The position numbers and the translations under genes were made by a program. DNA of 6,159 nt from a virus. Taxonomy: Duplodnaviria > Heunggongvirae > Uroviricota > Caudoviricetes. Position 1 is the first letter of the stretch; the number at the start of each line of letters is the position of its first letter. The stretch is taken from IMG/VR virus record IMGVR_UViG_2531839236_000025. The stretch is one strand, 5' to 3'. Below, piece by piece: positions 5,414 to 6,034 of the stretch. The notes beneath the pieces were generated by a model. The model saw nothing but the letters and a program-made list of their open reading frames with translations. It was not told the DNA's origin and ran no database searches.

Positions 5414-5542
5414 CATGGTGTTCACAGAACACACAGTTACCGGACACATCAGTTTTCCATTCGTCCCCCGGCAGTACAGGCTTCCCGTCTGACGGGATAG
5501 CCTGAAAAAACACAGAAAATTATTTGTTATAATTAATATAAC

Positions 5543-5683
5543 TTACTCAAAAAAAAGCGACGAGAAAATCAGCATCAACGAGCAATAAGCGCCAATACGT
5601 GATAACAAATGGCAGCCATATTTATCTGCAGTATAAGCAATGGACAGGATAACCACACCAGAAACCGTCAGCATAAAATCCAT
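5543..5683 (-). CDS. small hydrophobic protein (46 aa), candidate membrane peptide; not in supplied ORF track
   Basis: Manually translated: MDFMLTVSGVVILSIAYTADKYGCHLLSRIGAYCSLMLIFSSLFFE, stop TAA at 5545..5543. Two hydrophobic stretches. GGGGAAG SD-like sequence 5 nt upstream of the ATG at 5683..5681; in-frame upstream stop at 5749..5747. A 35-aa antisense plus-strand ORF (5608-5715) has no SD. Confidence 0.3.
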   Translation of the reverse strand: MDFMLTVSGVVILSIAYTADKYGCHLLSRIGAYCSLMLIFSSLFFE

Positions 5684-6034
5684 TTGAACTTCCCCGGACA
5701 AAATCGACTCATCTAAAGATTTACAGCTCTTTTTATTATCAATATGTTAAAAGTAAAATAAACAGATGTTCAATAATACGAATACAAAAACGTGCTGAAA
5801 ATCAATGAATCCATTTCTGTGTTATCAATTAATAGTGATAAACATCCGGCTTCTTCCACCATCGCACCGGACCAGCGACCATGAGGGGACAACGCCGCGC
5901 TCCGTTAACGCGGTAAACCCCGGTGTGTATCGTTTTTGATTATCCCCGCACACTCGCGCAGAGGATTCTCCCGGTCGGGCTGCGGTCTCTGTTAATGCAG
6001 GAATACGGCGACAATACCGTCGCATCAGCAAAAC

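Follow-up and report, generated by a model that had tools for sequence, protein, structure and literature searches.

Examples of phage morons are the bor gene of lambda, which is located downstream of Rz, and the Shiga toxin (Stx) and small RNA (sRNA) cargo at the pR' site. A moron, as reportedly defined by Juhala et al. in 2000 and by Hendrix, is extra DNA that is present in some relatives only, at a fixed site, with a distinct base composition and with its own promoter and terminator. The DNA analyzed here, hereafter the window, is a stretch of 6,159 nucleotides (nt) from the IMG/VR virus record IMGVR_UViG_2531839236_000025, which is the late region of an Escherichia coli lambdoid prophage of the BP-4795/Stx-phage type. 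Between its Rz gene and its packaging genes lies an AT-rich segment containing a 46-codon open reading frame (ORF46), a 42-nt element upstream of it, and the end of the neighboring 61-residue gene ynfO. An earlier reading made from the letters alone, referred to here as the original prediction, had described positions 5414–5844 as a moron-like island that separates the lysis cassette from the packaging module. The explanation we prefer, and regard as reasonably probable, is that this segment is one allele of a moron slot of E. coli lambdoid prophages, with ORF46 and its upstream element as cargo.

The locus agrees with the description of a moron in its distribution and in its composition. Of about 4,000 homologous slots, 788 hold the cassette; elsewhere, unrelated cargo or nothing takes its place. 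Its content of guanine plus cytosine (GC) is 36.2% (5414–5844), against 55.7% for the whole window; the minimum over all 431-nt windows is 35.7%, starting at 5402, which is approximately 3.3 standard deviations below the mean. The compositional contrast that had been claimed is hence real, and a sliding-window check identified the island as the lowest-GC stretch of the window, but the figures originally quoted for it (22–30% versus about 70%) are extremes and not averages: 60-nt windows give 17–58% (mean 36%) in the island and 27–73% (mean 60%) in the capsid gene. For a promoter and a terminator of its own there are candidates only, namely promoter-like hexamers in the conserved 42-nt element, in a number not above the shuffle expectation, and a weak hairpin downstream at 5410–5440. 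The placement between the two modules was also borne out, as the Rz stop codon (6035–6037) lies on one side and the HNH endonuclease and terminase genes on the other.

Similar to lambda bor, the cassette contains a small accessory gene just downstream of Rz, between late-gene modules. Lambda Bor is, however, a lipoprotein encoded on the strand opposite to the late genes, whereas ORF46 lies on the late-gene strand (minus) and carries no lipobox cysteine near its N-terminus, its only cysteines being residues 24 and 34; neither ORF46 nor the 61-residue reading frame matched the Bor family of Pfam. The ORF46 peptide also resembles type I toxins and other small membrane proteins, such as Hok, Ldr, TisB, and ZorO, in that it is shorter than 50 residues, strongly hydrophobic, and carried on a mobile element. 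The cassette is real and fairly ordinary moron-like cargo with an uncharacterized orphan gene, probably for a microprotein, which is incremental to known phage mosaicism and does not constitute a new kind of system.

An exchangeable cassette in a slot of lambdoid prophages

The cassette was delimited by comparing the window with roughly 240 loci related to it and with 5,426 complete genomes of E. coli, and window segments were mapped by blastn against 86 of the loci. The homology of many relatives ends at approximately nucleotide 155 of ynfO (window ~5382) and returns at ~5838–5845, the latter nearly coinciding with the right limit given in the original prediction. The slot is anchored by the 5' two thirds of ynfO on the left and by a non-coding junction of ~190 nt following Rz on the right, and the AT-rich DNA between these anchors differs among homologous prophages. 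The 5' part of ynfO was found at 4,181 places in 1,461 of the complete genomes and the post-Rz junction (~100 nt searched) at 4,002 places in 1,558, with up to 8–9 slots per genome. The cassette core was detected at 788 places in 734 genomes, mostly as a single copy per genome, so that about one-fifth of such slots in sequenced E. coli hold the gene of a 46-residue putative membrane microprotein. The ~80% of slots without the cassette suggest that it may be dispensable for the phage. Among the genomes listed as carriers, strains of O157, O26, O111, O121, O145, and O104 predominate.

The original prediction had proposed to compare the interval across related prophages; its content indeed varies, and the same segment is not conserved in all of them. 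Two loci (L004 and L086) have empty slots at the same junctions, and the slot of BP-4795 holds ~200 bp of AT-rich DNA without an ORF. Other prophages carry a PerC-family activator (Pfam 3.8e-44), a lipoprotein with a TonB_C domain of the JLK-2012 type (Pfam 1.4e-14), or a DUF1398 protein (Pfam 3.3e-43), and further loci contain other AT-rich DNA. These cargos share with our cassette the same flanks, the AT-rich character, and a C-terminal YnfO tail linked to the cargo; they are mutually unrelated in sequence, and ORF46 is much smaller than they are and has no recognized domain. In the loci where they were located, namely the PerC/Pch activator at L060:3307–3621, the TonB_C lipoprotein with its lipobox at L002:2411–2752, and the DUF1398 gene at L071:3276–3701, all three lie in AT-rich DNA. 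The position of DUF1398 (YbcV/YdfO) next to ylcI/ynfO is an arrangement known from the DLP12 and Qin prophages of E. coli K-12. The slot, now provided with coordinates, is one in which E. coli lambdoid prophages, those of the Stx type included, can hold virulence regulators of the PerC/Pch family as well as accessory genes of other kinds.

The cassette is 99–100% identical among its copies even where the adjoining ynfO is only 87–88% identical, and among relatives it adjoins two different packaging modules. Such a pattern of presence and identity suggests that cassettes would be exchanged by homologous recombination through the conserved anchors. The right anchor (5846–6034, ~190 nt after the Rz stop) contains no conserved ORF, Rfam match, or unusual fold, and is probably a module boundary or a recombination anchor.

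Several other candidate features of the cassette were rejected. A conserved micro-ORF, MVAGPVRWWKKP, reading across the right junction has lost its ATG in most alleles, and its continuation differs with each cargo. Terminal inverted repeats around ORF46 (5509–5537 and 5814–5842), resembling those of miniature inverted-repeat transposable elements, have arms that are not colinear and are not conserved in the most informative relative, lineage L087. A Fur box was sought in the DNA rich in GATAAT and TTATCA, one alternative cargo being TonB-like; its best match was 12/19, a score reached by 61% of shuffled sequences. No tRNA was found. In two copies of a further lineage, denoted B (L088 and L089; contigs ABZCYR010000033.1 and SRR33714414_229), the DNA downstream of ORF46 joins the middle of a terS-like frame (IDYMEDGLPDPVKAMGR), which points to a decaying prophage that has lost ynfO, HNH, and the 5' part of terS by deletion.

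ORF46, its predicted product, and its upstream element

The peptide encoded by ORF46 is MDFMLTVSGVVILSIAYTADKYGCHLLSRIGAYCSLMLIFSSLFFE. The original prediction of two small convergent ORFs with Shine-Dalgarno (SD)-like sites was right in that both exist and are annotated in RefSeq, but the 61-residue ORF (5228–5413) abuts the island rather than lying within it. The hydrophobic character ascribed to the 46-residue peptide was confirmed by a grand average of hydropathy (GRAVY) of 1.11 and two hydrophobic segments. AlphaFold2 (AF2) predicted two helices, at residues 2–22 and 24–44, with a predicted local distance difference test (pLDDT) score of 73. The product probably sits in a membrane.

The reading frame is intact in 140 of 140 copies on viral contigs and in 57 of 57 metagenome copies. 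These belong to three lineages, all of E. coli prophages, of which L087 is the single usefully divergent one. When ORF46 was compared with L087, the ratio of nonsynonymous to synonymous substitution rates (dN/dS) was 0.28 in frame 0, as opposed to 0.77 and 0.61 in the two remaining forward frames (Fisher P = 0.004). Among the six frames, amino-acid changes were fewest in frame 0, which gained no stops, whereas the other frames did. Codons with synonymous changes only numbered 9 against 5.3 expected; the core A19–C34, which holds the fully conserved motifs ADKYG and LLSRIGAYC, contained 5 synonymous and 2 replacement changes; and the hydrophobicity of the peptide was retained in the divergent lineage (P = 0.015). 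The signal of coding selection suggested by these sequence comparisons is only moderate, with P ranging from 0.004 to 0.2 depending on the test; it is likely, without being certain, that ORF46 is a genuine gene and encodes a membrane microprotein of two helices.

Homology searches placed the peptide in no described family. It had no match in Pfam, PHROGs, NCBIfam, or PADLOC, and neither ORF matched the PADLOC defence models at E ≤ 1. HMMER searches over 1.84e9 protein representatives gave no homologue beyond its own cluster, the additional matches being spurious translated repeats, and a word-indexed search for distant homologues likewise found none. DNA and pattern searches of phages, plasmids, GTDB species representatives, and metagenomes returned only the same three lineages, with no occurrence in plasmids or in any GTDB species representative. 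A homopolymer at the 3' end of ORF46 (5549–5556; A8 on the plus strand, T8 in ORF46) varies in length among copies, which places the C-terminus at 44, 45, 46, 49, or 51 residues; these are the sole length changes observed, and slippage may occur at the T8 run.

The 42-nt element is more strongly conserved than ORF46 itself. Identity in L087 amounts to 93% for the element, 81% for ORF46, and 68% for the SD-proximal leader, and the DNA downstream is not alignable; across 144 copies the element is invariant except for one substitution in 3 copies, and its promoter-like hexamers (TTGAAC, TAACAT, and GATAAT) do not vary. Two promoter-like sites on the ORF46 strand, A and B, are located in this region (Table 1), and autonomous expression of ORF46 from the prophage is possible, judging from these motifs. 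Site A is intact in the allele of the window (30 of the 144 copies), and the commonest allele (91 copies) reads ATTTCA/TGTTAT at the same positions. In that allele, the −35 hexamer is weakened (ATTTCA) and the −10 hexamer has lost its key A (TGTTAT), so that the alleles may differ in expression. Between the convergent ORFs, the inner 6 bp of the hairpin at 5410–5440 was matched by a terminator-like scan on the minus strand, and the hairpin is a candidate for a weak bidirectional terminator.

RNA features were also examined. A stable fold of the leader or of the opposite strand was rejected, since neither folds better than shuffled sequences (z = +0.5 and −0.8). When the whole window was scanned against Rfam at a permissive threshold (E ≤ 1), the single match was a chance one to a small nucleolar RNA inside terL, with none in the island. 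Models of AgvB, AsxR, and Esr41 were present in the library used, and Pas, AgvB, and AsxR map to the Q-S region; no covariance-model match was obtained for the known sRNAs of enterohemorrhagic E. coli (EHEC) prophages (AgvB, AsxR, Esr41, STnc100, and Sok). Downstream of the plus-strand promoter-like site at 5720–5748, neither a terminator nor an Rfam match was found.

From the gene order and established lambdoid biology, the late transcript is expected to cross ORF46 in the sense direction. In lytic growth, ORF46 would accordingly be transcribed as Q-antiterminated polymerase reads through the late operon, and perhaps it is also transcribed in lysogens from a sigma-70-type promoter within the 42-nt element. 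The microprotein produced would form a hairpin of two helices, insert in the inner membrane, and perhaps bind another membrane component there; its role would be accessory and dispensable, for example in exclusion, in modifying the envelope, or in modulating lysis, and not that of an enzyme. If the peptide is made, it would enlarge the small group of membrane microproteins encoded by phages, and its possible influence on lysis timing, exclusion, or host physiology could be tested. A bolder proposal, which we regard as rather unlikely, is that ORF46 and the 42-nt element constitute an unrecognized prophage membrane effector, that is, a toxin-like or superinfection-exclusion microprotein, perhaps controlled by an RNA or a promoter, which would be restricted to prophages of pathogenic E. 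coli and spread among them, mostly as a single copy although one genome may offer as many as nine compatible slots.

YnfO and the alternative explanations

The 61-residue ORF is a bona fide member of the YlcI/YnfO (DUF3950) family, as its scores were 70.7 bits for PF13132 (cut-off 25), 34.8 bits for NF041551 (cut-off 30), and 8e-31 for PHROG 949. This family is not known to have an established function. As had been predicted, the gene is encoded on the strand opposite to the late genes, that is, the plus strand. It is preceded by the SD-like site GAGGAAAG upstream of 5228, has a GC content of 44%, which is less AT-rich than the island, and concentrates its substitutions at third codon positions. 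The protein is the same as other family members in its domain, and only its C-terminal tail, STERSGMNYIIK, is specific to the cassette: the last ~10 codons belong to the cassette, and this tail alone changes with the cargo. The switch from the 87–88% identity of the 5' two thirds to the 99–100% of the cassette occurs at a breakpoint between 5336 and 5383, and YnfO is present beside every cargo type and beside empty slots. YnfO is hence a separate, constant small protein and not a dedicated partner of the cargo.

The AF2 monomer of YnfO has an extended N-terminus followed by helices at 19–32 and 34–59 with GSGN at the turn (pLDDT 72). Its top Foldseek matches were ParD2 and TCP ribbon-helix-helix proteins, only at E ≥ 3, and a profile search against PDB sequences gave nothing significant. 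DNA binding of the ribbon-helix-helix type is plausible from this modeled layout. Residues 5–26 (window 5240–5305) gave a weak, non-significant match (E 0.3–1) to sigma-70 region 2.4/3.0, which spans dozens of RpoD/SigA chains in the PDB with the aligned motifs TRNIRFPNQMIEQIN and ARTIRIPVHMVETIN. The genes ynfO and HNH diverge, with only 41 nt between their start codons (window 5186–5228), and any ynfO promoter must therefore sit within HNH coding DNA. From the sequence, the whole of ynfO is traversed antisense by the late transcript.

The moron reading can be retained without a functional ORF46. The cassette would then be real, the selected feature would be the 42-nt element, acting as a promoter, an sRNA gene, or an H-NS-type nucleation site, and ORF46 would be a by-product of T-rich sequence that the PGAP annotation pipeline happens to call. 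We consider this account possible but doubtful. The higher conservation of the element than of the reading frame speaks for it, as do the AT-rich but ORF-free allele of BP-4795 and the restriction of ORF46 to three near-identical E. coli lineages in searches over 1.84e9 representatives and metagenomes. Statistics of the reading frame also speak for it and count against the preferred explanation. An ATG-initiated ORF of at least 46 codons appeared in ~45% of composition-matched simulations (3% if equally hydrophobic), so that the mere presence of a small ORF is not beyond chance, and hydrophobic peptides are readily encoded wherever intergenic DNA is AT-rich (PMC11188072). Permutation tests in which the mix of transitions and transversions was preserved were not significant (P = 0.07 for synonymous codons and P = 0.21 for amino-acid changes), substitutions were distributed 8/7/11 over the codon positions, and only one usefully divergent lineage was available. 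Also against the preferred explanation, the commonest allele carries mutations in the best-scoring promoter-like site, A, promoter-like sites are no more numerous than expected from shuffled sequences, and the terminator-like scan gave no convincing terminator after ORF46. The peptide, its accession, and the island strings were absent from full text and from the supplements of the Sakai ribosome-profiling and EDL933 transcription-start-site studies, and the function proposed for the peptide is pure inference. On the other side, frame 0 was the best of six on every measure while the other frames gain stops, synonymous changes outnumber replacements in the core, and both the start codon and its SD-like site have been kept. 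Also against the non-coding account, neither strand folds better than shuffles, no Rfam family matched although AgvB, AsxR, and Esr41 were in the library, and the plus-strand promoter-like site is not followed by a terminator. If the peptide is not made, the conserved 42-nt element becomes the feature to study.

Two further explanations accept the peptide and assign it a partner. In one, ORF46 is a toxin resembling those of type I toxin-antitoxin systems, held in check by an antisense or divergent sRNA from the AT-rich upstream region, which we judge unlikely. Most type I toxins of E. coli possess one transmembrane segment, and ORF46 has two hydrophobic segments. The peptide is nevertheless within the size range (<60 residues) and the hydrophobicity of this class, a conserved leader element lies upstream of it, and the opposite-strand promoter-like site at 5720–5748 points through the leader region. 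Type I loci moreover do occur on EHEC prophages, an example being hokW-sokW of Sp5 (PMC8621323). Against it, neither Pfam, NCBIfam, nor phmmer over the 1.84e9 representatives revealed a relation of ORF46 to known type I toxin families (Hok, Ldr, Ibs, TisB, ShoB, DinQ, and Zor), and no antitoxin RNA was found, there being no sRNA family match and no terminator for a putative antisense RNA. The leader has no significant structure, the −35 hexamer of the single, weak opposite-strand site is not conserved in L087, and the sense orientation in the late operon would lead to massive transcription at induction regardless of an antitoxin. The other explanation is the regulator/effector pair of the original prediction, in which YnfO, as a DNA-binding regulator, and ORF46, as a membrane effector, were acquired together. 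The two genes lie next to each other in convergent orientation, the final ~10 codons of ynfO move together with the cassette, and the YnfO layout is ribbon-helix-helix-like, with the antitoxin ParD2 among its best, non-significant fold matches and a match to PHROG 497 (HicB-like) at E = 0.07. Their distribution has already largely refuted such a pair, which we consider very unlikely: YnfO occurs at ~4,200 places and ORF46 at 788, YnfO flanks the slot whatever the cargo, and its domain has a history of its own, with a recombination junction inside the 3' end of the gene. In addition, ynfO is present in cryptic prophages of E. coli K-12, as the gene names ylcI and ynfO indicate, which lack the cassette, and a search of the GTDB species representatives found neither of the island patterns.

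Feature coordinates and neighboring genes

The features of the slot and of the adjoining late genes are listed in Table 1.

Table 1. Positions of the features in the 6,159-nt window, with the strand and the basis of each assignment.
Feature	Position	Strand	Basis
Exchangeable AT-rich cargo cassette, approximate limits	5383–5845		Homology breaks in relatives; GC 36% vs 56%
ORF46, 46 codons, predicted hydrophobic two-helix microprotein, WP_000347013.1 "hypothetical protein"	5543–5683	−	PGAP coding sequence (CDS)
Shine-Dalgarno-like GGGGAA, 6 nt before the ORF46 ATG (5683)	5690–5695	−	From sequence; retained in divergent L087
42-nt element upstream of ORF46, hexamers TAACAT (5749–5744) and GATAAT (5740–5735)	5725–5766	−	Lineage conservation
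Promoter-like site B: TTGAAC (5773–5768), 18-nt spacer, TAACAT (5749–5744)	5744–5773	−	Consensus resemblance; kept in all lineages
Promoter-like site A: TTTTCA, 17-nt spacer, TATTAT	5773–5801	−	Consensus scan
Opposite-strand promoter-like site: TTTACA, 17-nt spacer, TATGTT, facing away from ORF46	5720–5748	+	Consensus scan
Imperfect 14-bp hairpin at the ynfO stop, between the convergent ORFs	5410–5440		79% complementary, 3-nt loop
ynfO/ylcI-family gene (DUF3950, 61 residues), constant left flank	5228–5413	+	PF13132 9e-20, NF041551, PHROG 949
Conserved non-coding post-Rz junction, constant right flank	5846–6034		87–100% identical under any cargo
Rz spanin gene, 3' end; stop codon 6035–6037	6035–6159	−	Identity to BP-4795 Rz
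HNH endonuclease, first gene of the packaging module	4821–5186	−	Pfam HNH 5e-6; RefSeq and phage annotations concur
Small terminase (terS)	3968–4531	−	Pfam and annotated near-identical records
Large terminase (terL)	2310–3971	−	Pfam and annotated near-identical records
Prohead protease-major capsid fusion, 645 residues	309–2246	−	Pfam Peptidase_S78 and Phage_capsid

The packaging and capsid genes (HNH, terS, terL, and the protease-capsid fusion) all lie on the minus strand, as assigned by Pfam and by the annotations of near-identical records. The assignment of Rz was based on window 6040–6159, which is 100% identical to positions 2674–2793 of the BP-4795 locus (L003), within an annotated Rz CDS at 2669–3136. 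The region 309–3971 is organized such that the protease-capsid fusion directly follows terL, without a portal gene between them according to Pfam. The gap between terS and HNH (4532–4820, 289 nt) shows a dip in GC to 45% and is 94–99% conserved in relatives; this is the location where cos is expected for an HNH-dependent packaging module.

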